Shown: piece after piece, positions 12,538 to 62,330 of the stretch
Layout: every line of letters starts with the position of its first letter
How positions within the stretch are numbered: the first letter of the stretch is position 1
Source: Candidatus Endomicrobium embiratermitis
Lineage (GTDB): Bacteria > Elusimicrobiota > Endomicrobiia > Endomicrobiales > Endomicrobiaceae
NCBI GenBank assembly: GCA_009781315.1
Contig: WQYI01000002.1
Location: 61,415-125,414, forward strand
DNA length: 64,000 nt
Direction of reading: 5' to 3'
Notes under the pieces: model-generated
What the model was told of the DNA's origin: nothing
Database searches by the model: none
What the model saw: the letters and a program-made list of their open reading frames with translations, nothing else
Position numbers and translations under genes: made by a program

Positions 12538-12545
12538 TCCTAGTT

Positions 12546-12613
12546 GTCATTCCGTTGGAAAACGGGATCCACGTTATTAGTTAAAAATGGATTCCGTTTT
12601 TCAACGGAATGAC
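12546..12613. repeat. Nested palindrome, GTCATTCC-type
   Basis: gtcattccgttggaaaacgggatcc ... ggattccgttttcaacggaatgac. Confidence 0.7.
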
Positions 12614-15831: not shown

Positions 15832-15920
15832 GAAGTTGAGAAGATGGGAAGCTGAGATGTTGAGCAACGACTTTGTCTTTGCTTTTTCCAAACTTCTCAT
15901 CATCTCATCTTCTTATCTTC
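15832..15920. repeat. Composite palindromic element, GAAGTTGAGAAG family (family 3), copy 1
   Basis: 5' arm gaagttgagaagatgggaagctgagatgttgagcaacgac is nearly identical to the arm at 28094; 3' arm ccaaacttctcatcatctcatcttcttatcttc. Confidence 0.7.
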
Positions 15921-15925
15921 TGCCT

Positions 15926-18544: not shown

Positions 18545-18611
18545 TATTGCTCCTTTAAAAAATGCCTAATATTTTCAATATGATATTAAACTTTGATATT
18601 CTTTGTCAAAG

Positions 18612-18790
18612 AAACGATTTTTCGTTTTGTTTATTCAAGCGCCGAGCGCATTCATTAAAAATTTTTAAAACAATTTGCGGAACTTGCGGCAGATAAAGAC
18701 TTATAAGGTTGCCGCTTCAAACAGTCCTCAATAGATTTTTAAAAAAATTTAATTCATAGACCGCGCTAATGCGCTTTGCATAAACAAAAC
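18612..18790 (-). mobile_element. MITE-like ~175-bp element with terminal inverted repeats (same family as 52262-52440, opposite orientation)
   Basis: The reverse complement aligns along its whole length with 52262-52440; termini gttttgtttatgcaaagcgc / gcgcttgaataaacaaaac. Confidence 0.7.
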
Positions 18791-18892
18791 AGGGTATTTC
18801 AAGACAACGACAAAGACGAGGAGGCTAGTATTTAAAGCAAGCAGTTGGAAAGGCAGGTAGTATTAGCAGTGATAATATATCTATAAATAAAA

Positions 18893-18925
18893 AAAGGGCA
18901 GAGTTTAAAAACTCTGCCCTTTAGA
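18893..18925 (-). terminator. Rho-independent terminator of the 18936-19535 gene
   Basis: GGGCAGAG-tttaaaaa-CTCTGCCC followed by a T7 run on the minus strand. Confidence 0.75.
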
Positions 18926-21912: not shown

Positions 21913-21933
21913 TTATTGACAAAAAACGCAAAC

Positions 21934-22032
21934 GGCAGAGGCAGAGATGCGGAGATGCAGGGAAAAGACAAAAGCAAAGACAGTTGTGTCGTTAACTCCG
22001 CATCTCTGCCTCTCTGCATCTCCACATCTGCA
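21934..22032. repeat. Composite palindromic element, family 4, copy 2 (divergent intergenic region)
   Basis: gcagaggcagagatgcggagatgcaggg ... ctccgcatctctgcctctctgcatctccacatctgc. Confidence 0.7.
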
Positions 22033-23344: not shown

Positions 23345-24153
23345 ATATCAATTTCTCAAAACTTACCGCAGCCGGGAACGATTTTGTTCTCATTGATAAC
23401 AGGGAAAATATAATAAATGAAAAGAATTACCGGAATCTTGCAATAAAACTGTGCGACAGGAAATATTCGATAGGCGCGGACGGTCTTATTTTTCTTGAAA
23501 AAAGCTCTGAAAAAGATTTTAAAATGAAATATTTTAATTCCGACGGTTCTCACGCTTCCATGTGCGGAAACGGCGGACGTTCTATCGCGATGTTTGCTTT
23601 TGAAATCGGAGCGGCAAAAGAAAAAATGATTTTTGAAACCGACGCAGGCGTTATTAACGCGGAAATTATACCCGGTAATAGGGTTAAACTTGATTTATAT
23701 GATCCAAAAGATTTAAAACGCGATATTAAAATCGAATCCGAAGGGCAAAAATTTGACATTGATTTTATAAATACGGGAGTTCCTCATGCGGTTATTTTTG
23801 TCGATGATATCGAAAATGCCGATGTTTTCAGATATGGAAGAGCGATACGAAACCATAAAGAGTTTGCGCCGTCAGGAACAAACGTAAATTTTGTCCGGGT
23901 ATTAAAAGACAATACGATTTTAGTCCGTACTTATGAAAGAGGAGTAGAAGGAGAAACTCTTGCCTGCGGCACAGGCATTACGGCTTCGGCGATAATTTCA
24001 GGGCTTAAGGGTTTTGCGAAATCTCCGGTTAATGTTGTTGCCAGAGGCGGAGATAAACTTGCAGTCGCGTTTAAAACCGGCGACGGAAAAATAACCGGAG
24101 TAGTTTTGGAAGGACCTGCGGTAATAGCGTTTAAAGGAACAGTAAAAATATAA
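23341..24153 (+). CDS. dapF: Diaminopimelate epimerase
   Basis: 270 aa; NSDGS...MCGNG and ACGTG catalytic-cysteine motifs; ATGA overlap with lysA. Confidence 0.9.
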   Translation: MNINFSKLTAAGNDFVLIDNRENIINEKNYRNLAIKLCDRKYSIGADGLIFLEKSSEKDFKMKYFNSDGSHASMCGNGGRSIAMFAFEIGAAKEKMIFETDAGVINAEIIPGNRVKLDLYDPKDLKRDIKIESEGQKFDIDFINTGVPHAVIFVDDIENADVFRYGRAIRNHKEFAPSGTNVNFVRVLKDNTILVRTYERGVEGETLACGTGITASAIISGLKGFAKSPVNVVARGGDKLAVAFKTGDGKITGVVLEGPAVIAFKGTVKI

Positions 24154-24155
24154 AA

Positions 24156-24268
24156 GACAAATAACAATTAACAAATGATAATTTACAATTAACGGCAAAA
24201 AACTATAGCAACAAGTTGACTTTAATTGTTATTTGTAAATTGTAAACTGTTAATTGTGGTTAATTGGG
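24156..24268. repeat. Composite palindromic element, TAACAATTAACAAAT family (family 1)
   Basis: aaataacaattaacaaatgataatttacaattaacgg ... ttaattgttatttgtaaattgtaaactgttaattgtggttaattgg; the 3' end runs into the GGGGG SD of dapA. Confidence 0.7.
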
Positions 24269-26755: not shown

Positions 26756-26880
26756 TTACTTGTCTTTAAATATCCGGAGCGTTCTATTCGTCTGTCATTC
26801 CCGCGAAAGCGGGAATCCAAGTTTAACATGACTCCCCTATTAAGACATTCGGGGATGACAAAAGGAAGGGTTTAAAACCT
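26756..26880. repeat. Palindromic element, GTCATTCCCGCGAAAGCGGGAATC type
   Basis: gtcattcccgcgaaagcgggaatc plus tcccctattaagacattcggggatgacaaaagg; the same core recurs at 40355-40390. Confidence 0.65.
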
Positions 26881-26928: not shown

Positions 26929-28101
26929 ATGAATAAAAAGCAATTGAGCGGTTACGTATCTGATATAATTGAAGATATAAAAGAAAACGGCGATAAAGCC
27001 GTTTATAAATATCTCAAAAAATTTGACGGCGTTGATTTATCGCTAAAAGGATATAAAATATCTAAAAAAACGATAGACGATGCTGCCAAACGCGTTTCTC
27101 CCTCTTTAAAAAATGCTATAAAATCATCGTATCTTAATATTTTGTCATACCATAAATACGAATATTTGCAAATTAAAAAAAGCTGGGTCAGAAATAAAAA
27201 CGGCGTTAAGACGGGTCAATTTTACTCTGCGGTTGAGTCCGCGGGGATATATGTTCCGGGCGGTAAATTCCCTTATCCTTCTACTGTTATAATGACTGCC
27301 GTTCCTGCAAAAGCCGCGGGAGTTAAAAGAATTGTCATGGTAACCCCGCCAAATAATATTAGCGATGAAGTTCTTTATGCCGCTCAACTTTGCGGCGTTA
27401 CGGATGTATACGGCGTAGGCGGAATTATGGCGATTGCCGCTCTTGCTTACGGCACGCAGACAGTTAAAAAAGTCGATATTATAGCAGGTCCCGGAAACGC
27501 CTATGTGAACGAGGCCAAAAGGCAGGTTTTCGGCCGGGTAGGCATAGATTCTTTGGCAGGTCCCAGCGAAGTGGCTATAATAGCCGATAAAAGCGTTCCC
27601 GTAAAATACGTTGTTGCCGATATTATGGCGCAGGTTGAACATGACGCTATGGCTAAAGCTTATTTGTTTTGCGAAAGCCAATCAAAGATTGGGAAAATAA
27701 AAGAAGCTTTGCCAAAAGAAGCTCTTAGTCAGGTTGAAATTGAACTTTGTTCATTAGATAAAGCGGTTGAAAAAGTAAATAAAATCGCTCCAGAACATCT
27801 TGAGATTCTTGTTGAAAATTATTTAAAACTTGTCAAAAACATTAAAAACGCCGGCGCAATTTTTGCGGGTTATCAAACGCCTACGGCCGCCGGAGATTAC
27901 TGGGCGGGACCGTCTCATGTTTTGCCTACAAACGCTTCCGCGAAGTTTTCAAGCGGGTTGTCTGTTATGTCGTTTTTGAAAAGGACGACATATATTGAAT
28001 TGAACAAAAATAATGCTAAAGCCTATAAAGAAATTGCGGATTTTGCGCGCTGCGAAGGAATGAAATATCATAAAGAATCGGCCGATATAAGAAGAAGTTG
28101 A
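26929..28101 (+). CDS. hisD: Histidinol dehydrogenase
   Basis: 390 aa; Zn/NAD-binding motifs (AGPSEVAII; EHLEI). Confidence 0.88.
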   Translation: MNKKQLSGYVSDIIEDIKENGDKAVYKYLKKFDGVDLSLKGYKISKKTIDDAAKRVSPSLKNAIKSSYLNILSYHKYEYLQIKKSWVRNKNGVKTGQFYSAVESAGIYVPGGKFPYPSTVIMTAVPAKAAGVKRIVMVTPPNNISDEVLYAAQLCGVTDVYGVGGIMAIAALAYGTQTVKKVDIIAGPGNAYVNEAKRQVFGRVGIDSLAGPSEVAIIADKSVPVKYVVADIMAQVEHDAMAKAYLFCESQSKIGKIKEALPKEALSQVEIELCSLDKAVEKVNKIAPEHLEILVENYLKLVKNIKNAGAIFAGYQTPTAAGDYWAGPSHVLPTNASAKFSSGLSVMSFLKRTTYIELNKNNAKAYKEIADFARCEGMKYHKESADIRRS

Positions 28102-28204
28102 GAAGTTGGGCAGCTGGGAAGTTGAGCAACGACGAAGGTAAAGACAAAAGACGAAACGACCACAGCTCCTCTCAGCTTCTCAACTGCCAAGCTCTCTAAA
28201 CTTC
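28094..28204. repeat. Composite palindromic element, family 3, copy 2; its 5' arm overlaps the hisD stop codon
   Basis: gaagttgagaagttgggcagctgggaagttgagcaacgacgaagg ... cagctcctctcagcttctcaactgccaagctctctaaacttc. Confidence 0.7.
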
Positions 28205-32745: not shown

Positions 32746-33141
32746 GTGGAAAAGATAATAAAAGTTTTAAAGTTCGATGACAAAGGATTAATTCCGGCCG
32801 TAGTGCAGGACTGGAAAGACAATGCCGTTTTAATGGTCGCGTATATGAATAAAGAGGCTGTTTTAAGAACCCTTAAAACAAAAAAAGCTACTTTCTGGAG
32901 CCGTTCAAGGCAGTCTTTTTGGGTAAAAGGCGAAAGTTCCGGAAATATCCAGAAAGTCAAAGAATTTTATTATGACTGCGACGGCGACTGCATACTTTTA
33001 AAAGTTAACCAAATCGGCGGAGCGGCGTGCCATACGGGGCATAGAAGCTGCTTTTTTACAAAAGTTACTTCGACCGGCAATACTAAAACCATTGGAAAGA
33101 AGTTGTTTGATCCGGAGAAAGTCTACAAAAAAGACAAGTAA
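32746..33141 (+). CDS. hisI: Phosphoribosyl-AMP cyclohydrolase
   Basis: 131 aa; CDGD and CHTG metal-binding motifs; HisI only, no HisE fusion. Confidence 0.88.
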
Positions 33142-33215
33142 CAATTTACAAATAACAATGAAAAACAATGTTTTTGTCGTTTTGTCGTTAATTGTAAATT
33201 ATTAATTGAAAATTG
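33139..33215. repeat. Composite palindromic element, family 1
   Basis: taacaatttacaaataacaatg ... cgttaattgtaaattattaattgaaaattgg; the 3' end supplies the GGAG RBS of trpF. Confidence 0.65.
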
Positions 33216-33223
33216 GAGTTATT

Positions 33224-33876: not shown

Positions 33877-34851
33877 GTGGATGTATTAATGGATAACTTT
33901 AAAATAGCGAAAGAAACGATTGATATCGAAGTAAAAGCCCTTCAGCGCCAGATAAAACATCTTGACGCTAATTTTTCCAAAGCCGTTGATCTGATTAAGA
34001 ATTGCAGAGGGCGTATTTTGGTTATGGGGCTTGGAAAATCCGGGCTTATAGGGCGCAAAATATCTGCGACCATGTCTTCCGTAGGAATACCGTCGGCTTT
34101 TATTCATCCGTCGGAAAGTCTTCACGGTGATATCGGAATGGTTATGAAAGACGACGTAGTTATAATGCTTTCTTATTCCGGCGAAACCGAAGAAATTAAA
34201 AAAGTTCTTCCTGTTCTGCGTAAAATGAAAATAGAAGTCGTGGTTATGACCGGTAAACCGAAAGCGTTTGTATGGCGGGACTGCAAATGTATAATTGATT
34301 GCAGCGTTGAGAAAGAGGCGTGTCCTTATAATCTTGCGCCTACCGCTTCCACTACCGCAATGCTTGCAATGGGAGACGCTCTGTCTTTGACTGTTTCCAA
34401 TTTGAAAGGTTTTAAAAAAGAAAATCTGGCTTTGTTTCACCCGCTTGGAGCTATAGGCAAAAAGCTTACAATGCAGGTAAGCGATATTATGAGAAAAGGC
34501 AGCGCTAATCCGGTTGTAAAAGAAAATGCCTTTGTCGGGGACGCGCTTTTGGTAATGACCGGCACAAGAGTCGGCGCGACAAGCATTATAAATAAAAATG
34601 GAAAGATAACCGGCTTTTTTACCGACGGCGACTTAAGAAGACATTTGCAGAAAGACGGAAAAATTCTTAAAAAGAAAATTTCGGAAGTTATGACAAAATC
34701 TCCGCGCACGGTTACGCCCGATATGATGGCGGTTGACGCGGCGAGGATTTTAAAAAAATATAACATCGACAATATTCCGGTGGTAAGCAAAGACAATAAA
34801 CCTTTGGGAATTTTAGACCAGGGAGATTTGCTTGCCGAAGGAATTTCTTGA
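33877..34851 (+). CDS. kpsF: Arabinose-5-phosphate isomerase (KpsF/GutQ family; SIS plus tandem CBS domains)
   Basis: 324 aa; SIS motif VMGLGKSG; C-terminal CBS pair. Confidence 0.85.
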   Translation: MDVLMDNFKIAKETIDIEVKALQRQIKHLDANFSKAVDLIKNCRGRILVMGLGKSGLIGRKISATMSSVGIPSAFIHPSESLHGDIGMVMKDDVVIMLSYSGETEEIKKVLPVLRKMKIEVVVMTGKPKAFVWRDCKCIIDCSVEKEACPYNLAPTASTTAMLAMGDALSLTVSNLKGFKKENLALFHPLGAIGKKLTMQVSDIMRKGSANPVVKENAFVGDALLVMTGTRVGATSIINKNGKITGFFTDGDLRRHLQKDGKILKKKISEVMTKSPRTVTPDMMAVDAARILKKYNIDNIPVVSKDNKPLGILDQGDLLAEGIS

Positions 34852-34855
34852 AAAG

Positions 34856-34958
34856 CAATTAACAAATAACAATTTACAATTGACAAATGAAAACTGTCAA
34901 AAAAATTTAATTATTATTTATAATCTGTTAATTGTGCTTTGTTAATTATTAATTGTCT
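34856..34958. repeat. Composite palindromic element, family 1
   Basis: aattaacaaataacaatttacaattgacaaatg ... taatctgttaattgtgctttgttaattattaattg, followed by GGGGG. Confidence 0.7.
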
Positions 34959-34975
34959 TTATGGGGGAATTGAAA

Positions 34976-35922: not shown

Positions 35923-37176
35923 ATGTTCTTTGAATCGTTAAAAGAATATGAAGGAATGAAGCCGGGTCTTTCAAGAATAAAAAAATTTCTTGATAGCGTC
36001 GGAAATCCTCAAAATAAATTTAATTGCGTTCATATAGCGGGAACAAACGGTAAAGGTTCCACTGCGGCTTTTATAGACGCTGTTTTAAAAGAAAACGGTT
36101 ATAAAACCGCTCTTTACACTTCTCCGCATTTGACGGATATTAACGAACGCATAAAAGTATGCGGAAAAAATATCCCGAAAAATAAATTTAACTACATAGC
36201 CCAAAAATATATAAAACATGCCATACAATGCGAACTTTCTTATTTTGAATATCTTACCGCTATAGCTTTTATATATTTTGCCGGGCAAAAAATCGATATT
36301 GCCGTAATAGAAACAGGACTTGGCGGCAGATTTGATGCCACTAATGTTATTGAAAAACCTTTGGGTTCGGTTATCACTTCCATATCTTTTGACCATAAGG
36401 AAATTTTAGGAAATACCATTGAAAAAATAGCGTCTGAAAAAGCGGGTATTATAAAAAAAGGAGCTTTTACCGTTTGTTCTAAAGTTCCCGCTGCGGCTTT
36501 GAGAGTAATACGCGGTAAAGCAAGAAATGTTCAGAGCCGGGTTTATATTTTAAATAAAGATTTCTTTATAAAGAACGCGACCGATAAAGAGTTTGACTAT
36601 CACGGCATTGAAAAAAATATACAAGATATAAAATTATCCCTTATAGGCAAACATCAGTTTAATAATGCCGCGACGGCTCTTTGCGTTATTGAACTTTTAA
36701 CAAAAAACGGCTATGCTTTTAGCGATGAAAAAATAAAAAAAGCCTTGATTTCCGCGGTTTGGAACGCAAGATTTGACGTAAGAAAAGTAAAATTTAACAA
36801 TAGAAAATTTGAACTTGTTATAGACGGCGCGCACAATGAAGAGGGAATAAACGCCTTTATCGAAACCTGGAATAACAGCGCATATTGTAAAAAGAAACGA
36901 AGTTTCATTTTTGCGGTGATGAAAGAAAAAAATTATAAGAAAATAGCGAAGAAAATAGCTTGTTTGGCGGACGAGGTAATTTTACCGGATTTAAAAACCG
37001 ACAGAGCCGTGCCGCAAAACGTTTTAAAAACGGAATTTTTAAAATATATGGAAGATGAGAGTAAAATTTATCGCGCGGGTTCCGTAAAAGAAGCCTTAAA
37101 TATTATAAAAAACAAGGGTAAAGCGGCGGCAGTAGGTTCTCTTTATCTTGCGGGCGAGATTTTAAAAAATATATAA
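35923..37176 (+). CDS. folC: Folylpolyglutamate synthase / dihydrofolate synthase
   Basis: 417 aa; Mur-ligase P-loop GTNGKGST. Confidence 0.88.
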   Translation: MFFESLKEYEGMKPGLSRIKKFLDSVGNPQNKFNCVHIAGTNGKGSTAAFIDAVLKENGYKTALYTSPHLTDINERIKVCGKNIPKNKFNYIAQKYIKHAIQCELSYFEYLTAIAFIYFAGQKIDIAVIETGLGGRFDATNVIEKPLGSVITSISFDHKEILGNTIEKIASEKAGIIKKGAFTVCSKVPAAALRVIRGKARNVQSRVYILNKDFFIKNATDKEFDYHGIEKNIQDIKLSLIGKHQFNNAATALCVIELLTKNGYAFSDEKIKKALISAVWNARFDVRKVKFNNRKFELVIDGAHNEEGINAFIETWNNSAYCKKKRSFIFAVMKEKNYKKIAKKIACLADEVILPDLKTDRAVPQNVLKTEFLKYMEDESKIYRAGSVKEALNIIKNKGKAAAVGSLYLAGEILKNI

Positions 37177-37185
37177 TTCAAACAA

Positions 37186-37308
37186 CAAAGTTGAAAGTGA
37201 AGAGAGAAAAGAGGAAATGTCGTATTTCGGCAAATCCGAAATTAATTTTAGGTTTTCGCTTTGCGAAAACACAATAATTTCACTTTTAACTTTACACTTT
37301 TCACTTTT
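37186..37308. repeat. Composite palindromic element, family 2 (AAAGTGAAAAGTG)
   Basis: Arms caaagttgaaagtgaagagag / ttcacttttaactttacacttttcacttttc; core hairpins tttcggcaaatccgaaa and ttttcgctttgcgaaaac. Confidence 0.75.
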
Positions 37309-37324
37309 CTTTTGAGGTATTAAA

Positions 37325-40305: not shown

Positions 40306-40314
40306 ATGAAACAA

Positions 40315-40450
40315 TTAGGAATTAGGAGTGAGGAGTTAGGAATTAACGACAAAAGACTTTGTCATTCCCGCGAAAGCGGGAATCTAAGTTTTCTAAAAGT
40401 TTGCGGCGAAGCCGCTCCAAAATTCCTAATTCCTAATTTCTAACTCCTAA
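40315..40450. repeat. Composite palindromic element, ATTAGGAATTAGGAG arm flavour
   Basis: Arms attaggaattaggagtgaggagttaggaatt / aattcctaattcctaatttctaactcctaatt; core gtcattcccgcgaaagcgggaat plus tttgcggcgaagccgctccaaaatt. Confidence 0.75.
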
Positions 40451-46006: not shown

Positions 46007-46102
46007 GAAGTTTAGATGTTTGGCAGCTTGGAAGCTTGGCAAAAACAAAAGGCAGTTACTAAGCTTCCAAACTTCTAAGCTCTCTAAACTCTCTAAACTT
46101 CT
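46007..46102. repeat. Composite palindromic element, family 3, copy 3 (between tadB and tadC)
   Basis: gaagtttagatgtttggcagcttggaagcttggc ... aagcttccaaacttctaagctctctaaactctctaaacttc. Confidence 0.7.
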
Positions 46103-47001: not shown

Positions 47002-47035
47002 TTTTAATCCTCGCTTGCCTTTGCCGTTAAATATC

Positions 47036-47098
47036 GGTTTTGTTTATGTAAAGCGCGTTAGTGCGAATGCGTGCGGCGCTTGAATAAACAAAACAAAA
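47036..47098. mobile_element. Internally deleted derivative of the MITE-like element (terminal inverted repeats only)
   Basis: gttttgtttatgtaaagcgcgttagtgcg ... cgtgcggcgcttgaataaacaaaac, matching both ends of 52262-52440. Confidence 0.6.
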
Positions 47099-47106
47099 AA
47101 TATTGA

Positions 47107-47135
47107 TTGACAAAAAAAAATATTTTTTCTATATT
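47107..47135 (+). promoter_or_regulatory. Sigma-70-type promoter for the tRNA-Lys/tRNA-Glu pair (TTGACA-N17-TATATT)
   Basis: ttgacaaaaaaaaatattttttctatatt, about 70 nt upstream of tRNA-Lys. Confidence 0.5.
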
Positions 47136-48991: not shown

Positions 48992-49013
48992 TAAAAGCAG
49001 AGTAAGAATAATA

Positions 49014-49146
49014 AAAAGTGTAAAGTTGAAAGTTAAAAGTGAAAATTACGTGTTTTCGCTTTGCGAAAACTAATTAATTTGATTTCGGCTTTGTCGAAAT
49101 TCATTATTTTAACTTTGCACTTCTCACTTTTCACTTTGTCGTTAAA
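49014..49146. repeat. Composite palindromic element, family 2 (core hairpins in swapped order)
   Basis: aaaagtgtaaagttgaaagttaaaagtgaaaat ... gttttcgctttgcgaaaac ... gatttcggctttgtcgaaat ... ctttgcacttctcacttttcactttgtcgttaaaaaagg. Confidence 0.75.
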
Positions 49147-49159
49147 AAAGGCGGAGCCT

Positions 49160-51263: not shown

Positions 51264-52178
51264 ATGAAAAGACATTTTTCTATCGCCGTATGTTTGGTAT
51301 TTATTATGAGCGTTTTTATCCCGTCTTTTTTGCATGCGGAAGATTATATGGTCTACGAAGACGGAGTTGTTGTTATGGTTGAAGACAAAAATTCTGAAGA
51401 TGAGACGGCCTCCGTAAATAAAAATGACGACGAAAATGATGTAAGCGAAGAAACGACAACCGTTACTGACGAGCACAAAGACTCGGAAGATGATAATACG
51501 GCGTCCGTAAATGAAAATGAGAACGAAAATGCAAGCGAAGAACCGACAACCGTTACTGACGAGCGCAAAAATTCGGAAGATAATAAAACGGCGGCCGTAA
51601 ATAAAAATAACGACGAAAATGTAAGCGAAGAAACGAAAACCGTTGCTGACGAGCGCAAAGATTCGGAAGATAATAAGACTGCATCCGTAAATGAGAATGA
51701 AGACGAGGATGAAAATAGTTTTGTCTACATAGGAAACGAAAGGAAAACTCGCGCAAATGCGAGTAAATTTAATGAATCCGGTAACGATAATGTTTCTGTA
51801 AATGAAAATAAAGAAAGAGGCGTAAAGGCACAGACGGCAAAGCCGAAACCGCAACAAGCGAAACCGCAGCAAGCGCAAAATACAGGTCCTAAACCTAACC
51901 AGGACGAACAGGCAATAGCAAAAAAAGTTCAGGAATATTATAATGAGTTTATGAAAAATCCTAAAGTGGTATCTTTTATTAAGTTTCTTTCAAAAAGATG
52001 GGAAGAAATAAAAGCTTTTGTTTCTGAGCTTCCGGGAATCAAGCAGTATAACAACTCTATATATACAAACGAAAACTACAAAAAAGAGATGGGAGCTTTT
52101 TCCACTGAATACAAACCTCATATACAGAGTAACAGCGAAGGCGTTCAAAAAGCCAAAGAAGGTGCAAAAAAGCTTTAA
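51264..52178 (+). CDS. Secreted acidic tandem-repeat protein (hypothetical)
   Basis: Signal peptide, then about 3.5 imperfect ~31-aa repeats (TTTVTDE[HR]K[DN]SED[DN][NK]TA[SA]VN[EK]N[EDN]...), a Q/P-rich segment (KPKPQQAKPQQAQNTGPKPNQ) and a folded-looking ~100-aa C-terminal domain. Confidence 0.6.
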   Translation: MKRHFSIAVCLVFIMSVFIPSFLHAEDYMVYEDGVVVMVEDKNSEDETASVNKNDDENDVSEETTTVTDEHKDSEDDNTASVNENENENASEEPTTVTDERKNSEDNKTAAVNKNNDENVSEETKTVADERKDSEDNKTASVNENEDEDENSFVYIGNERKTRANASKFNESGNDNVSVNENKERGVKAQTAKPKPQQAKPQQAQNTGPKPNQDEQAIAKKVQEYYNEFMKNPKVVSFIKFLSKRWEEIKAFVSELPGIKQYNNSIYTNENYKKEMGAFSTEYKPHIQSNSEGVQKAKEGAKKL

Positions 52179-52261
52179 TATCGTAAATTTTGTGCTTCTT
52201 CTTTCCGAGGCTGTTGAGAGAGAAAATTACTGGAATTTATTTATAAATTTTTGTCTTTAAA

Positions 52262-52440
52262 AACCCTGTTTTGTTTATGTAAAGCGCATTAGCGTGGCTT
52301 ATGAATTAAAAATTTTTAAAAATCTTGAGGACTGTCCGAAGCGGCAACCTTATAAGCCTTTATTTGCCGCAAGTTCCGCAAACTGTTTTAAAAATTTTTA
52401 ATGAATGCGCTCGGCGCTTGAATAAACAAAACGAAAAAGC
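52262..52440 (+). mobile_element. MITE-like ~175-bp element with ~20-bp imperfect terminal inverted repeats
   Basis: gttttgtttatgtaaagcgcattagcg ... cgctcggcgcttgaataaacaaaacg, with internal sub-palindromes; full copy at 18612-18790 (inverted) and deleted copy at 47036-47098. Confidence 0.7.
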
Positions 52441-52444
52441 AATC

Positions 52445-52587
52445 TTGACATATCAACCCGTAGTTTTGTATAACCTGCAAAACCTAACCTGTAGAAAATA
52501 ATTCCTCGAAAAAATTTCTAAAAAAAAATCATTGACAAATCTATACGTATGTTGTAACATTATTTTTGCCACTACGGGTAGTTTTGT
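52445..52587 (+). promoter_or_regulatory. nrdR upstream region: two promoter-like hexamer pairs plus the palindromes TAGTTTTG-N9-CAAAACCTA and ACTACGGGTAGT
   Basis: TTGACA-N18-TATAAC at 52445-52474, TTGACA-N17-TAACAT at 52532-52560, perfect 12-bp palindrome ACTACGGGTAGT at 52571-52582; the motif cgtagttttgt occurs twice. Confidence 0.4.
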
Positions 52588-52624
52588 CGACCAGTAAAAT
52601 TTAAAAAAAATTAAGAGCAAAAAA

Positions 52625-53107
52625 ATGAAATGTCCTTTTTGCGGAAGTTTTGAAGACCAAGTGCTTGATTCCCGCCCGATTGAACATTTGCCTGCCGTAA
52701 GGCGGCGCAGAGAATGTTCCGGCTGTAAAAAAAGGTATACCACTTTTGAAAGGCCTGAAGAAATAAGCCTTATGGTTGTTAAATCTGACCAAAGCAGGCA
52801 GCCTTTTGACAGAAAAAAGATTTGGGAAGGCATAGACAGAGCGTGCCGCAAACGTCCTATTGCCGTTGAAACAATAGACAAAATCGTAAGCGAAATAGAA
52901 AACGAGCTGACAGGCGAATACGTTATGGAAATACCGTCAAGCGTTATAGGACAGAAAATTTTAGATAAACTTTGGGACGTAGACCTTGTGGCGTATATAA
53001 GGTTTGCTTCGGTATATAGAAAATTCGGCGACATAGACACTTTTATGGCCGAACTTAAAAAACTTAAAAAAGAACATATAAAAAGACAATTGAAAAATAA
53101 CAAATAA
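52625..53107 (+). CDS. nrdR: Transcriptional repressor NrdR
   Basis: MKCPFCGSFEDQVLDSR zinc ribbon plus ATP-cone. Confidence 0.92.
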   Translation: MKCPFCGSFEDQVLDSRPIEHLPAVRRRRECSGCKKRYTTFERPEEISLMVVKSDQSRQPFDRKKIWEGIDRACRKRPIAVETIDKIVSEIENELTGEYVMEIPSSVIGQKILDKLWDVDLVAYIRFASVYRKFGDIDTFMAELKKLKKEHIKRQLKNNK

Positions 53108-53196
53108 CAGATAACAATTAAAAACGGCTGTAGTAATAAGGCAGCTTTGAAGTTTTAATTAATTTGTCAATTGTAAATTGTTAATTGTTGTTAATC
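53098..53196. repeat. Composite palindromic element, family 1 (between nrdR and nrdJ)
   Basis: aacaaataacagataacaattaaaaacgg ... ttaattaatttgtcaattgtaaattgttaattgttgttaatc followed by TGGGGG. Confidence 0.7.
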
Positions 53197-55527: not shown

Positions 55528-55534
55528 TATACGA

Positions 55535-55666
55535 CAAAGTAGAAAGTTAAAAGTGTAAAGTGAAAATATTGTGTTTCGGCAAAGCCGAAACAGAGTTTAG
55601 GTTTTTGCAAAGCAAAAACACATCTTAACTTTTAACTCTTCACTTTTCACTTTGTCGTTAAAAAAG
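55535..55666. repeat. Composite palindromic element, family 2
   Basis: caaagtagaaagttaaaagtgtaaagtgaaaat ... gtttcggcaaagccgaaac ... gtttttgcaaagcaaaaac ... cttaacttttaactcttcacttttcactttgtcgttaaaaaaggg. Confidence 0.8.
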
Positions 55667-55672
55667 GGATTT

Positions 55673-60502: not shown

Positions 60503-61357
60503 ATGTTTAAACTAAATCCTAAACTATCACAGAAAATTTCATATTCGATTTTATTTTGCGCGACGATACTTGCCATTATTCCGGTGGCAGTCATTATTTT
60601 TATTATTATAAAAAACGGCGCCTCGGCGATAACATGGGAATTTTTAACTTCTATGCCCAAAAACGGCATGAGAGGCGGAGGTATTCTTCCCGCTATAATA
60701 GGAACACTTTCGATAGTTATGTGCGCTATTGCCGTCACTTTGCCGATAGGTGTTTGCGCGGCTATATATTTAAACGAGTATGCGAAAGACAATCTGCTTA
60801 CAAGAATAATAAAACTTGCGATCGTAAATCTTGCGGGCGTTCCGTCGGTAGTATACGGGTTGTTCGGGCTCGGAATTTTCGTAATGTTTTTAAAACTCGG
60901 CGTGTCGATTATTGCCGGAGCCTTAACTTTGGCTATAATGGAGTTACCGGTAATTATAACTACGGCAAGAGGCGCGCTAAACAGCGTGCCGTATTCTTTC
61001 AGGGAAGCAAGCTTATCTTTAGGCGTAAGCCGCTGGCAGACTATAAGGCATGTTGTTTTGCCTAATGCTTTGCCGGGAATTTTAACGGGAGCGATTTTAA
61101 GCATAGCAAGAATTTCGGGAGAAACCGCGCCGATAATGTTTACCGCGGCGGCTTTTTATGTTCCGCATCTTCCGACGTCCGCTTTTGACCAGGTTATGGC
61201 TTTACCGTACCATTTGTATATTATTTCAACCCAGATACCGGGTATGCCCAAAAACATAATTTTCGGCACGGCTTTGGTTTTATTAATGATGGTTTTATCG
61301 ATGAGCTTAATCGCTATAATAGCAAGAATATATTTCAGAAAACGCAGAAAATGGTAA
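60503..61357 (+). CDS. pstA: Phosphate ABC transporter permease
   Basis: Begins MFKLNPK...; 6 TM helices. Confidence 0.85.
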   Translation: MFKLNPKLSQKISYSILFCATILAIIPVAVIIFIIIKNGASAITWEFLTSMPKNGMRGGGILPAIIGTLSIVMCAIAVTLPIGVCAAIYLNEYAKDNLLTRIIKLAIVNLAGVPSVVYGLFGLGIFVMFLKLGVSIIAGALTLAIMELPVIITTARGALNSVPYSFREASLSLGVSRWQTIRHVVLPNALPGILTGAILSIARISGETAPIMFTAAAFYVPHLPTSAFDQVMALPYHLYIISTQIPGMPKNIIFGTALVLLMMVLSMSLIAIIARIYFRKRRKW

Positions 61358-61360
61358 TTT

Positions 61361-61492
61361 TAACGACAAAGTGAAGAGTGAAAAGTGTAGAGTGTAAATA
61401 TTGTGTTTCGGCGAAGCCGAAACGGATTAAATGTTTTTGCAAAGCAAAAACTCATTATTTCCACTTTTAACTTTCAACTTTTCAAATTGTCT
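61361..61492. repeat. Composite palindromic element, family 2 (between pstA and pstB1)
   Basis: acgacaaagtgaagagtgaaaagtgtagagtg ... gtttcggcgaagccgaaac ... gtttttgcaaagcaaaaac ... ccacttttaactttcaacttttcaaattgtc. Confidence 0.8.
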
Positions 61493-61504: not shown

Positions 61505-62254
61505 ATGGATAAAATAAAAGTTGAAAATTTAAGTTGTTTTTATGGCGGACAATGCGTTTTGGAATCGTTGGATATCAACGTTGTCAAAAACGAGATACTG
61601 ACTATTATAGGCCCCGCAAACAGCGGCAAAACCACTTTTTTAAGAACTCTTAACAGAATGAGCGATTTAAACACTAGTTATTCGCGTAAAGGCACTGTAT
61701 ATCTCGACGATGAAAATATTTTTAATATGAATATGGAAAAACTCAGGAAACGCGTCGGAATGCTTTTCGCAATGCCCATACCTTTGCCTATGACGATTTA
61801 TGAAAATATAGTTTACGCGCCTAAAAGACTCGGGCTTGTTTCTAAAAAAAACGAAATGGACGCTGTTGTAGAACAGGCTTTGAAAGACGCTTCTTTATGG
61901 GACGAGGTTAAAGACAGGCTTAACTCTTCGGGAATGAAACTTTCCGGCGGCCAGCAGCAAAGGCTTTGCATAGCAAGAATATTAGCGATAAATCCCGAAG
62001 TTATTTTATTTGACGAACCCTGCTCCGGACTTGATCCTATTTCAACTGCGAAAGTAGAAGAATCTATGATAGAGTTGAAAGAAAAATATACTATCGTCCT
62101 TGTGACGAATAACGTAAAACAGGCTTCAAGAGTAGGCGACAGAACTGCGTTTTTCCTTATGGGAAAACTTGTAGAAATTGATAAAACGGGAACTATGTTT
62201 GTTTCGCCGAAGCAGAAACAGACGGAAGACTATATTACAGGCAGATTTGGATAA
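61505..62254 (+). CDS. pstB: Phosphate import ATP-binding protein PstB, copy 1
   Basis: Begins MDKIKVENLS; Walker A GPANSGKTT; signature LSGGQQQRL. Confidence 0.88.
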   Translation: MDKIKVENLSCFYGGQCVLESLDINVVKNEILTIIGPANSGKTTFLRTLNRMSDLNTSYSRKGTVYLDDENIFNMNMEKLRKRVGMLFAMPIPLPMTIYENIVYAPKRLGLVSKKNEMDAVVEQALKDASLWDEVKDRLNSSGMKLSGGQQQRLCIARILAINPEVILFDEPCSGLDPISTAKVEESMIELKEKYTIVLVTNNVKQASRVGDRTAFFLMGKLVEIDKTGTMFVSPKQKQTEDYITGRFG

Positions 62255-62261
62255 TAACGGC

Positions 62262-62320
62262 AGTTAACAATTTACAAATAATAATTAACAAATTTGTTTT
62301 AAATTGTTAATTATAAATTG
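62262..62320. repeat. Composite palindromic element, family 1 (short; between pstB1 and pstB2)
   Basis: cagttaacaatttacaaataataattaacaaatttgttttaaattgttaattataaattgg followed by AG. Confidence 0.65.
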
Positions 62321-62330
62321 GAGTTTTGAT

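Follow-up and report, generated by a model that had tools for sequence, protein, structure and literature searches.

The three related sequences found in the window, the 64-kb stretch of DNA from Candidatus Endomicrobium embiratermitis analysed here, are probably copies of a non-autonomous palindromic mobile repeat that is MITE-like in the broad sense in which the Correia and ERIC elements are, and that would form a previously undescribed, low-copy family of termite-gut Endomicrobium. In kind the element is most likely ordinary, and the strict name of MITE is weakened in that neither a consistent target-site duplication nor a partner insertion sequence was found and in that one relative holds a short remnant at the glgP site. 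Five loci in two species carry it: copies A, B and C in the window, and copies E1 and E2 in Ca. Endomicrobium labiotermitis (Table 1). The original prediction placed the three window copies correctly, to within 1–12 nt at each end, and had copies A and B align over their full length; indeed they are 92.1% identical over 190 aligned columns, a span that includes extra homology in the flanks, while in the 60 nt outside them on each side the identity of 49–51% is that of the background. The 19-mer of the right end, GTTTTGTTTATTCAAGCGC, occurs exactly three times in the 64-kb window; at up to three mismatches 0.25 matches would be expected, and none of 100 shuffled sequences reached three.

The full unit of about 190 bp is made up of a 17-nt left module, two imperfect arms of about 30 nt, a 106-bp centre and an A-run, with the full element measuring 165–190 bp and copy C 58–80 bp, and with ends of the form GTTTTGTTTATG...CATAAACAAAAC. 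Imperfect terminal inverted repeats of about 20 bp had been predicted and are present: their outer 11 bp (GTTTTGTTTAT/ATAAACAAAAC) are perfect in all five copies, and two further short G+C stems extend the pairing to about 23 bp. Homology runs on for about 17 nt beyond the left repeat, as the left module TTGyCkTTAAAwAyCCyG found in all copies, and for 6 nt beyond the right one, as rAAAAA. Both of these pieces lie outside the inverted repeat yet move together with the element, something unusual in a MITE of the DDE type; that the A-run does so follows from its presence in E1 and E2, neither of which has a -35 hexamer after it. Sites resembling the left module with at most two mismatches number eight in the window against 1.8 expected, and they include those of copies A, B and C and one at 26760 that stands ahead of a different repeat. 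When the module was considered as a genomic motif or a target, it bore only a vague resemblance to the empty sites of relatives.

Internal sub-palindromes had been predicted, and inside the arms lie a 17-bp A/T stem formed by two TTAAAAATTTTTAA arms and the apical stem GCGGCAA/TTGCCGC. Copy C, which had been read as an internally deleted form, has indeed lost its centre and keeps both termini together with part of the right junction (GAATGCG); its sequence fits an internal deletion near two direct repeats of ATGAAT, one on either side of the centre in A and B. The element holds no open reading frame: ATG AAT TAA stops at once.

Table 1. Features of the window and of fetched Endomicrobium loci (positions refer to the window unless a locus, numbered with L, is named)
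Feature	Position	Strand	Details	Basis
Copy A, full-length	52251-52438	+	inverted-repeat limits 52268-52432	sequence reading, alignment, repeat finder
Copy A, left module	52251-52267	+
Copy A, left inverted-repeat arm	52268-52297	+
Copy A, central part	52298-52403	+	two TTAAAAATTTTTAA arms and GCGGCAA/TTGCCGC stem
Copy A, right arm	52404-52432	+
Copy A, A-run	52433-52438	+	GAAAAA
Copy B, full-length	18618-18807	-	inverted-repeat limits 18790 and 18624	alignment, repeat finder
Copy B, left module	18807-18791	-
Copy B, A-run	18623-18618	-
Copy C, internally deleted mini copy	47021-47100	+		alignment
Copy C, left module	47021-47036	+
Copy C, 58-nt hairpin	47037-47094	+	the two termini joined
Copy C, A-run	47095-47100	+
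Copy E1	L005 2326-2516 (same site as L035 9788-9980)		Ca. Endomicrobium labiotermitis; between HAD hydrolase and radical-SAM genes
Copy E2	L035 1654-1867	-	Ca. Endomicrobium labiotermitis; 8 kb from E1, opposite strand
nrdR promoter P1	52445-52474	+	TTGACA, 18 nt, TATAAC; starts 12 nt past copy A right end	read from sequence
nrdR promoter P2	52532-52560	+	TTGACA, 17 nt, TAACAT; conserved CCGGTAGTTTTG boxes on both sides
Alpha-glucan phosphorylase (glgP) promoter	18580-18609	-	TTGACA, 18 nt, TATCAT; 11/12 in scan; starts 14 nt past copy B right end
tRNA-Lys/tRNA-Glu promoter	47107-47135	+	TTGACA, 17 nt, TATATT; 11/12 in scan; starts 12 nt past copy C right end
Intrinsic terminator of the 199-aa gene upstream of copy B	18893-18922	-	between that gene and copy B; kept in L030 and L033
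Boxes around the nrdR promoters	52451-52500, 52560-52590		CAACCyGTAGTTTTGT, AACCGGTAGAA, CACTACCGGTAGTTTTG
304-aa open reading frame upstream of copy A	51264-52178		tandem repeats at 51400-51714
Second palindromic repeat family	12545-12576, 26793-26860, 40360-40391; L035 1690-1815 (inside E2)		TGTCATTCCCG...CGGGAATCC...GGGAATGACA (TGTCATTCCCGCGAAAGCGGGAATCCAAGTT...GGGGATGACA)
14-bp palindrome	L005 2519-2532; L037 9861-9874		GTTTCACGTGAAAC
Palindromic element of about 137 bp	L019 177-313 (also in L018, L020)		GGTTTTGTTTTGTCGTAATTGCGAGGA...TCCTCGCAATGACAAAAG
Low-complexity hairpin regions	37173-37320, 49004-49150, 55529-55667, 61354-61488; 24150-24260, 33127-33220, 34851-34960, 53086-53192, 62253-62325; 15832-15921, 28094-28133, 46007-46046, 1498-1591, 21932-22029; 40310-40450; L037 9880-9985

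Against shuffled sequences the fold of the whole element scores z = -5.8 as DNA and that of copy C z = -3.5 as RNA. The fold is also asymmetric between the strands. Stem mismatches in the five copies comprise nine G·T pairs on the plus strand of the element against one A·C (one-sided binomial p ~0.01, the events being few and, as the copies share ancestry, only partly independent), and the plus strand is more stable than the minus strand by 6–10 kcal/mol in all five. Four of the five copies share the orientation of the genes on either side, E2 being the exception, as it is antisense to them. GC skew is uniform across the window and dips only over minus-strand genes, which suggests a single direction of replication, and copy B thus tracks the direction of the genes and not that of replication; no rule relating orientation to replication emerged, either from A and C against B in the window or from E1 against E2 within 8 kb. 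The G·T excess and the shared orientation with the genes, drawn from small numbers and related copies, hint that the sense-strand hairpin matters. A role as an intrinsic terminator was considered and rejected: the outer stem is A/T-rich, rAAAAA follows it on one strand and there is no consistent T-run on the other.

One explanation of a strong, conserved fold whose plus strand is the more stable is a family of independently transcribed small-RNA genes, which we consider very improbable. At no copy is there a promoter-like site upstream or a terminator after the element, copy C lacks two thirds of the sequence, the centre of E2 is unrelated, and E1 ends 29 nt before the ATG of the next gene, the radical-SAM gene. 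Nor is there an Rfam match: with Rfam 15 only three tRNAs reach the gathering threshold in the window, and over copy A the best hit at E <= 10 is STnc220, with 16.8 bits against a threshold of 60. The same asymmetries bear on another explanation, that the repeat is a cis-acting module of the host, kept by selection, whose sense-strand hairpin acts in RNA or DNA and whose mobility is only historical. As RNA it would protect a 3' end, offer an RNase III site or insulate the upstream gene and the next promoter from each other; as DNA it would be a bent, cruciform-prone segment with the A-run as an upstream promoter element. We regard such a module as unlikely overall. The wobble bias, the better fold of the plus strand and the co-orientation of four copies, with B following the local gene direction, all speak for it, but the wobble events carry the dependence noted above and E2 runs antisense to its neighbours. 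In addition, no single internal motif can be required, as copy C lacks the centre and E2 has a foreign one.

The call for a search for further copies yielded E1 and E2 and nothing more in 578 kb. E1 is the one true match of an exact scan with the right-end 19-mer over one genome per species (185,579 genomes), and the same locus was returned by an exact scan of the JGI metagenomes; the window's own genome apparently lies outside the genome and metagenome collections scanned. The other 19-mer matches are chance similarities of 20–35 nt in Proteobacteria and were discarded. E2 was found by fetching 10 kb on either side of the E1 locus, and it was all that nhmmer profiles, built on the entire element and on its two ends, added across the 578 kb of fetched loci. 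The left module, the two arms and 15 nt at the start of the centre are intact in E2, with the rest of the centre replaced by a member of a second palindromic repeat family. The member of that second family at 26.8 kb in the window is an insertion relative to L033, and it has the same left-module motif ahead of it (TTGTCTTTAAATATCC, at 26760).

Copy number appears low, a point against the mobile-repeat reading: the window species has three copies over about 95 kb and Ca. E. labiotermitis two over 21 kb, and none was seen in three other relatives, covered by about 130 kb together. The contigs L015 and L036 both begin within the element, as commonly happens when multi-copy repeats are assembled. 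Between the two species the copies, which lie at different loci, are 83–84.5% identical, against 62–76% at the third codon positions of flanking orthologues, and so they either share an ancestor more recent than that of the genomes or are under constraint. A more recent source could mean that the element stayed active or was passed between species living in the same gut; constraint, with conservation exceeding that of third codon positions, would favour the host module.

Evidence for mobility comes from the comparison of the nrdR, tRNA-Lys, glgP and radical-SAM loci with those of sister species, in which the flanking proteins are 76–94% identical. Upstream of nrdR, copy A is absent in L016, L018, L022 and L028, and L018, which has no element, retains both P1 (CTTGACA...CAACCyGTAGTTTTGTATAACC) and P2 along with their surrounding boxes. 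At the tRNA-Lys site, L016 and L017 keep AAAAATAATGTTTGACAAAAAAAATTATTTTTTCTATATTATACAGG and the promoter without copy C; at the glgP site, the upstream terminator and the promoter TTTGACAAAGAATA...TTTAATATCAT are conserved in L030 and L033, neither of which has a full copy B. The window species in turn lacks the element where Ca. E. labiotermitis carries E1: at the radical-SAM site L037, a locus attributed to the window species on the ground that it and the window's contig share one ENA sample, the GTTTCACGTGAAAC palindrome is retained and E1 is missing. Relatives with identical copies at the same loci, which the original prediction had named as evidence against its reading, were therefore not found, the nrdR, tRNA-Lys and glgP sites lacking the element between proteins 86–94% identical. 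Judged from these aligned sequences, four loci are polymorphic for the insertion of the element.

The glgP site of L033 is not entirely clean. It holds a remnant consisting of CTTTCCGTTAAATAC and, 12 nt further on, GAATAAATAAAAC, spaced from the glgP -35 hexamer as copy B is; CTTTCCGTTAAATAC agrees with copy C's left module in 14 of 16 positions and GAATAAATAAAAC matches the right terminus of E2 at 13 of 13, and the chance of such a 13-mer at that place, estimated from base composition, is below 1e-4. The site was thus either filled before the species split and then eroded, or is a recurrent target. In the former case copy B would be old and would still be 92% like copy A, which would speak for constraint and against selfish drift. 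Since it occupies the position of copy B upstream of glgP, the remnant counts in favour of the host module.

Two further palindromes were seen at these sites. The perfect 14-bp palindrome GTTTCACGTGAAAC upstream of the radical-SAM gene is conserved in both species and is probably a transcription-factor site, lying 8 nt past the end of E1. In a sister species the DNA ahead of the tRNA-Lys promoter is taken up by another palindromic element, about 137 bp long; in front of that element stands TTGCCTTTAAAATATCCGG, a sequence similar to the left module of the MITE-like element.

The genes that flank the window copies are housekeeping genes, encoding NrdR, a B12-dependent ribonucleotide reductase, adenylosuccinate synthase, alpha-glucan phosphorylase and the tRNA-Lys/tRNA-Glu pair; proteins identical to NrdR occur on termite-gut metagenome contigs labelled Endomicrobia. 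Each window copy occupies the gap between the end of the upstream gene and the downstream promoter. Placement immediately upstream of promoter-like hexamers had been predicted, and it is borne out for the three window copies, with spacings of 12, 14 and 12 nt; as a general rule it fails, for only three of the five known copies follow it and both E1 and E2 lack a subsequent -35 hexamer. The sigma-70-type promoters are kept in relatives without the element and hence predate it, and for the same reason the element did not create them. The spacing possibly reflects either the sole gap that is tolerated between co-directional genes in a compact genome or a real target preference. With it, the A-run of the window copies falls at about -47 to -42. 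In E. coli promoters this is about the position of the proximal UP subsite. At nrdR P1 the A-run stands in place of a T-run seen in L018, and an effect of the A-run on promoter strength might be supposed from its position.

The position 12–14 nt before the -35 hexamer, with rAAAAA at about -47 to -42, is again what a host module would lead one to expect, but the promoters next to it are conserved and presumably working in relatives that do without the element, and E1 and E2 have no such hexamer to serve. Moreover, a strong intrinsic terminator stands ahead of copy B, so that read-through probably does not reach it, which speaks against routine transcription of that copy. A variant of the idea joins mobility to function: the repeat would be a domesticated promoter-upstream cassette, in which a selected sense hairpin insulates the promoter against transcription coming from upstream and provides a UP-like A-run at about -45, and which is copied without duplication through homology of the left module to sequences upstream of -35 hexamers. 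Such a cassette would explain at one stroke the constant 12–14-nt spacing, the G·T bias, the conservation above the synonymous level and the glgP remnant of L033; we nevertheless think it improbable.

Around both nrdR promoters lie boxes that are conserved in all Endomicrobium relatives. These are probably NrdR operator boxes, and would imply autoregulation. The 304-aa open reading frame upstream of copy A, which matches no Pfam family, includes a run of three to four tandem repeats, each 90 bp long; its position is taken by a different gene, of 222–227 aa, in L016 and L022 and by none in L018.

What moved the element was sought in several collections. As predicted, there is no transposase among the open reading frames of the window, nor do the genes and Pfam families listed for the fetched Endomicrobium loci include one. 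No autonomous partner was returned by the exact right-end 19-mer in the 185,579 species genomes and the JGI metagenomes, and neither a partner nor a relative by the 19-mer with one degenerate base and the left end in IMG/VR or by blastn in plasmids and phages; these searches, being made with exact 19–20-mers or with blastn on plasmids and phages, would let a diverged partner escape. Target-site duplications, which the original prediction had suggested looking for, did not materialise: at offsets of 0–30 nt on the left and 0–20 nt on the right no consistent duplication was found in the five copies, which is a weak negative, and the best candidates, AAA or AA, are artefacts of the A-runs. The features of a MITE that are present are a size well under 500 bp, non-coding sequence, terminal inverted repeats, non-orthologous copies at unrelated loci, and both filled and empty sites. 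The MITE-like reading is thus largely right, although the other two classical marks of a MITE, the duplication and the partner insertion sequence, did not come up in these searches.

The absent duplication fits another route, in which the element is a single-stranded DNA hairpin moved by a tyrosine (HUH) transposase, in the manner of a REPIN with its RAYT or of an IS200/IS605 derivative associated with palindromes, and not a cut-and-paste MITE. A conserved left module 5' of the foot of the left hairpin resembles the target or guide region of IS200/IS605, the strand-asymmetric tolerance of G·T fits a folded single strand, and a long hairpin of two inverted arms is REPIN-like (PMC3116915). We still hold this route to be quite unlikely. 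The GTAG/CGTC tags that mark most REP families (PMC3733652) are missing, the arms beginning with GTTTTG; the 4 nt directly 5' of the arm vary (CCCT, CCCT, ATCG, CCCG, CCCG); the copy number is seemingly far below the hundreds typical of REPINs; the Pfam and gene lists of the fetched Endomicrobium loci contain no Y1 transposase; and orientation, as described above, is not tied to one direction of replication (A and C against B, E1 against E2).

On the preferred reading, that of a MITE-like mobile repeat, the element would be moved by an enzyme supplied in trans and would now be mostly a passenger. It has reached unrelated sites between genes in no fewer than two co-resident species, decays by internal deletion, as in copy C and the L033 remnant, and accepts nested insertions of another repeat family, as in E2. 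Where it settled it would have put an A-run at the proximal UP-element subsite and shifted the DNA farther upstream by 60–180 bp, and read-through from the upstream gene would add a long sense-strand RNA hairpin. The G·T excess would suggest that a single-stranded hairpin, an RNA or a DNA intermediate, is seen by selection or mobilisation.

Small palindromic repeats such as Correia, ERIC, RUP and REPIN are the general kind to which the element belongs (PMC2649163, PMC2229807, PMC10969869, PMC3116915), and among known bacterial MITEs both nested small repeats and promoter-adjacent placement have been described (PMC10969869, PMC2649163). The searched literature holds no report of small mobile repeats in Endomicrobium, or of Endomicrobium together with MITEs. 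The Correia elements of Neisseria (CREE/NEMIS) share much with the Endomicrobium element: they are non-coding, about 100–160 bp long, have terminal inverted repeats and are intergenic, often directly upstream of genes; some copies are full-length and others internally deleted, close relatives differ in which sites are filled, and the elements form long hairpins if transcribed (PMC2649163, PMC10969869). The likeness is architectural only, as there is no sequence similarity and the terminal sequence differs. Correia elements have 26-bp inverted repeats, a TA duplication, an IHF site and promoters created at their ends, whereas the Endomicrobium element has no TA or other duplication, no IHF site that could be recognised by eye, and adjacent promoters that are older than it is; Correia copies run to hundreds, those of the Endomicrobium element apparently to tens at most.

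ERIC/IRU elements of enterobacteria and Vibrio are likewise imperfect palindromes, of at least 127 bp, in transcribed intergenic regions (transcription being putative in Endomicrobium), with size variants that arise by internal deletions or insertions; their sequence is unrelated and their hosts belong to another phylum than the Elusimicrobiota. The effects of ERIC depend on orientation, through RNA hairpins. The REPIN/REP sequences mobilised by RAYTs resemble the element in their two-inverted-arm hairpins, the lack of a target duplication and an apparently long inheritance within a lineage (PMC3116915), but the Endomicrobium element differs in having no GTAG/CGTC tag (PMC3733652), longer arms, a 106-bp centre, a low copy number and no RAYT gene in view. 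In pneumococci the BOX, RUP and SPRITE repeats show, as far as PMC10969869 summarises PMC3049150, how several families share intergenic regions and insert into one another, as the TGTCATTCCCG family does inside E2; their sequences and modular structures are different, and RUP has a known IS partner.

The understanding of bacterial MITE-like elements is left unchanged by this family. Together with the other repeats of the window, it indicates that the small genomes of a symbiont lineage still exchange and reshuffle non-coding elements. In practice the element breaks metagenome assemblies, two contigs starting within it, and it is usable as a marker of strain or species. Given expression data, the promoters of nrdR, the tRNA-Lys/tRNA-Glu pair and the alpha-glucan phosphorylase gene, whose upstream context differs between sister species, make up a natural experiment on the sequence ahead of promoters.

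Many other intergenic regions of the window are long hairpins whose arms consist of low-complexity, degenerate short repeats, with a purine-rich word in the left arm and its complement in the right. The words differ by region (AAAGTGAAAAGTG/CACTTTTCACTTT, ACAATTAACAAAT/ATTTGTAAATTGT, GAAGTTGAGAAGATGGG/CATCTCATCTTC and AATTAGGAGTGAGG/CTCCTAATTCC), and the relatives have such hairpins too. They may be a genome-wide intergenic feature, one more unusual than the MITE-like element itself.
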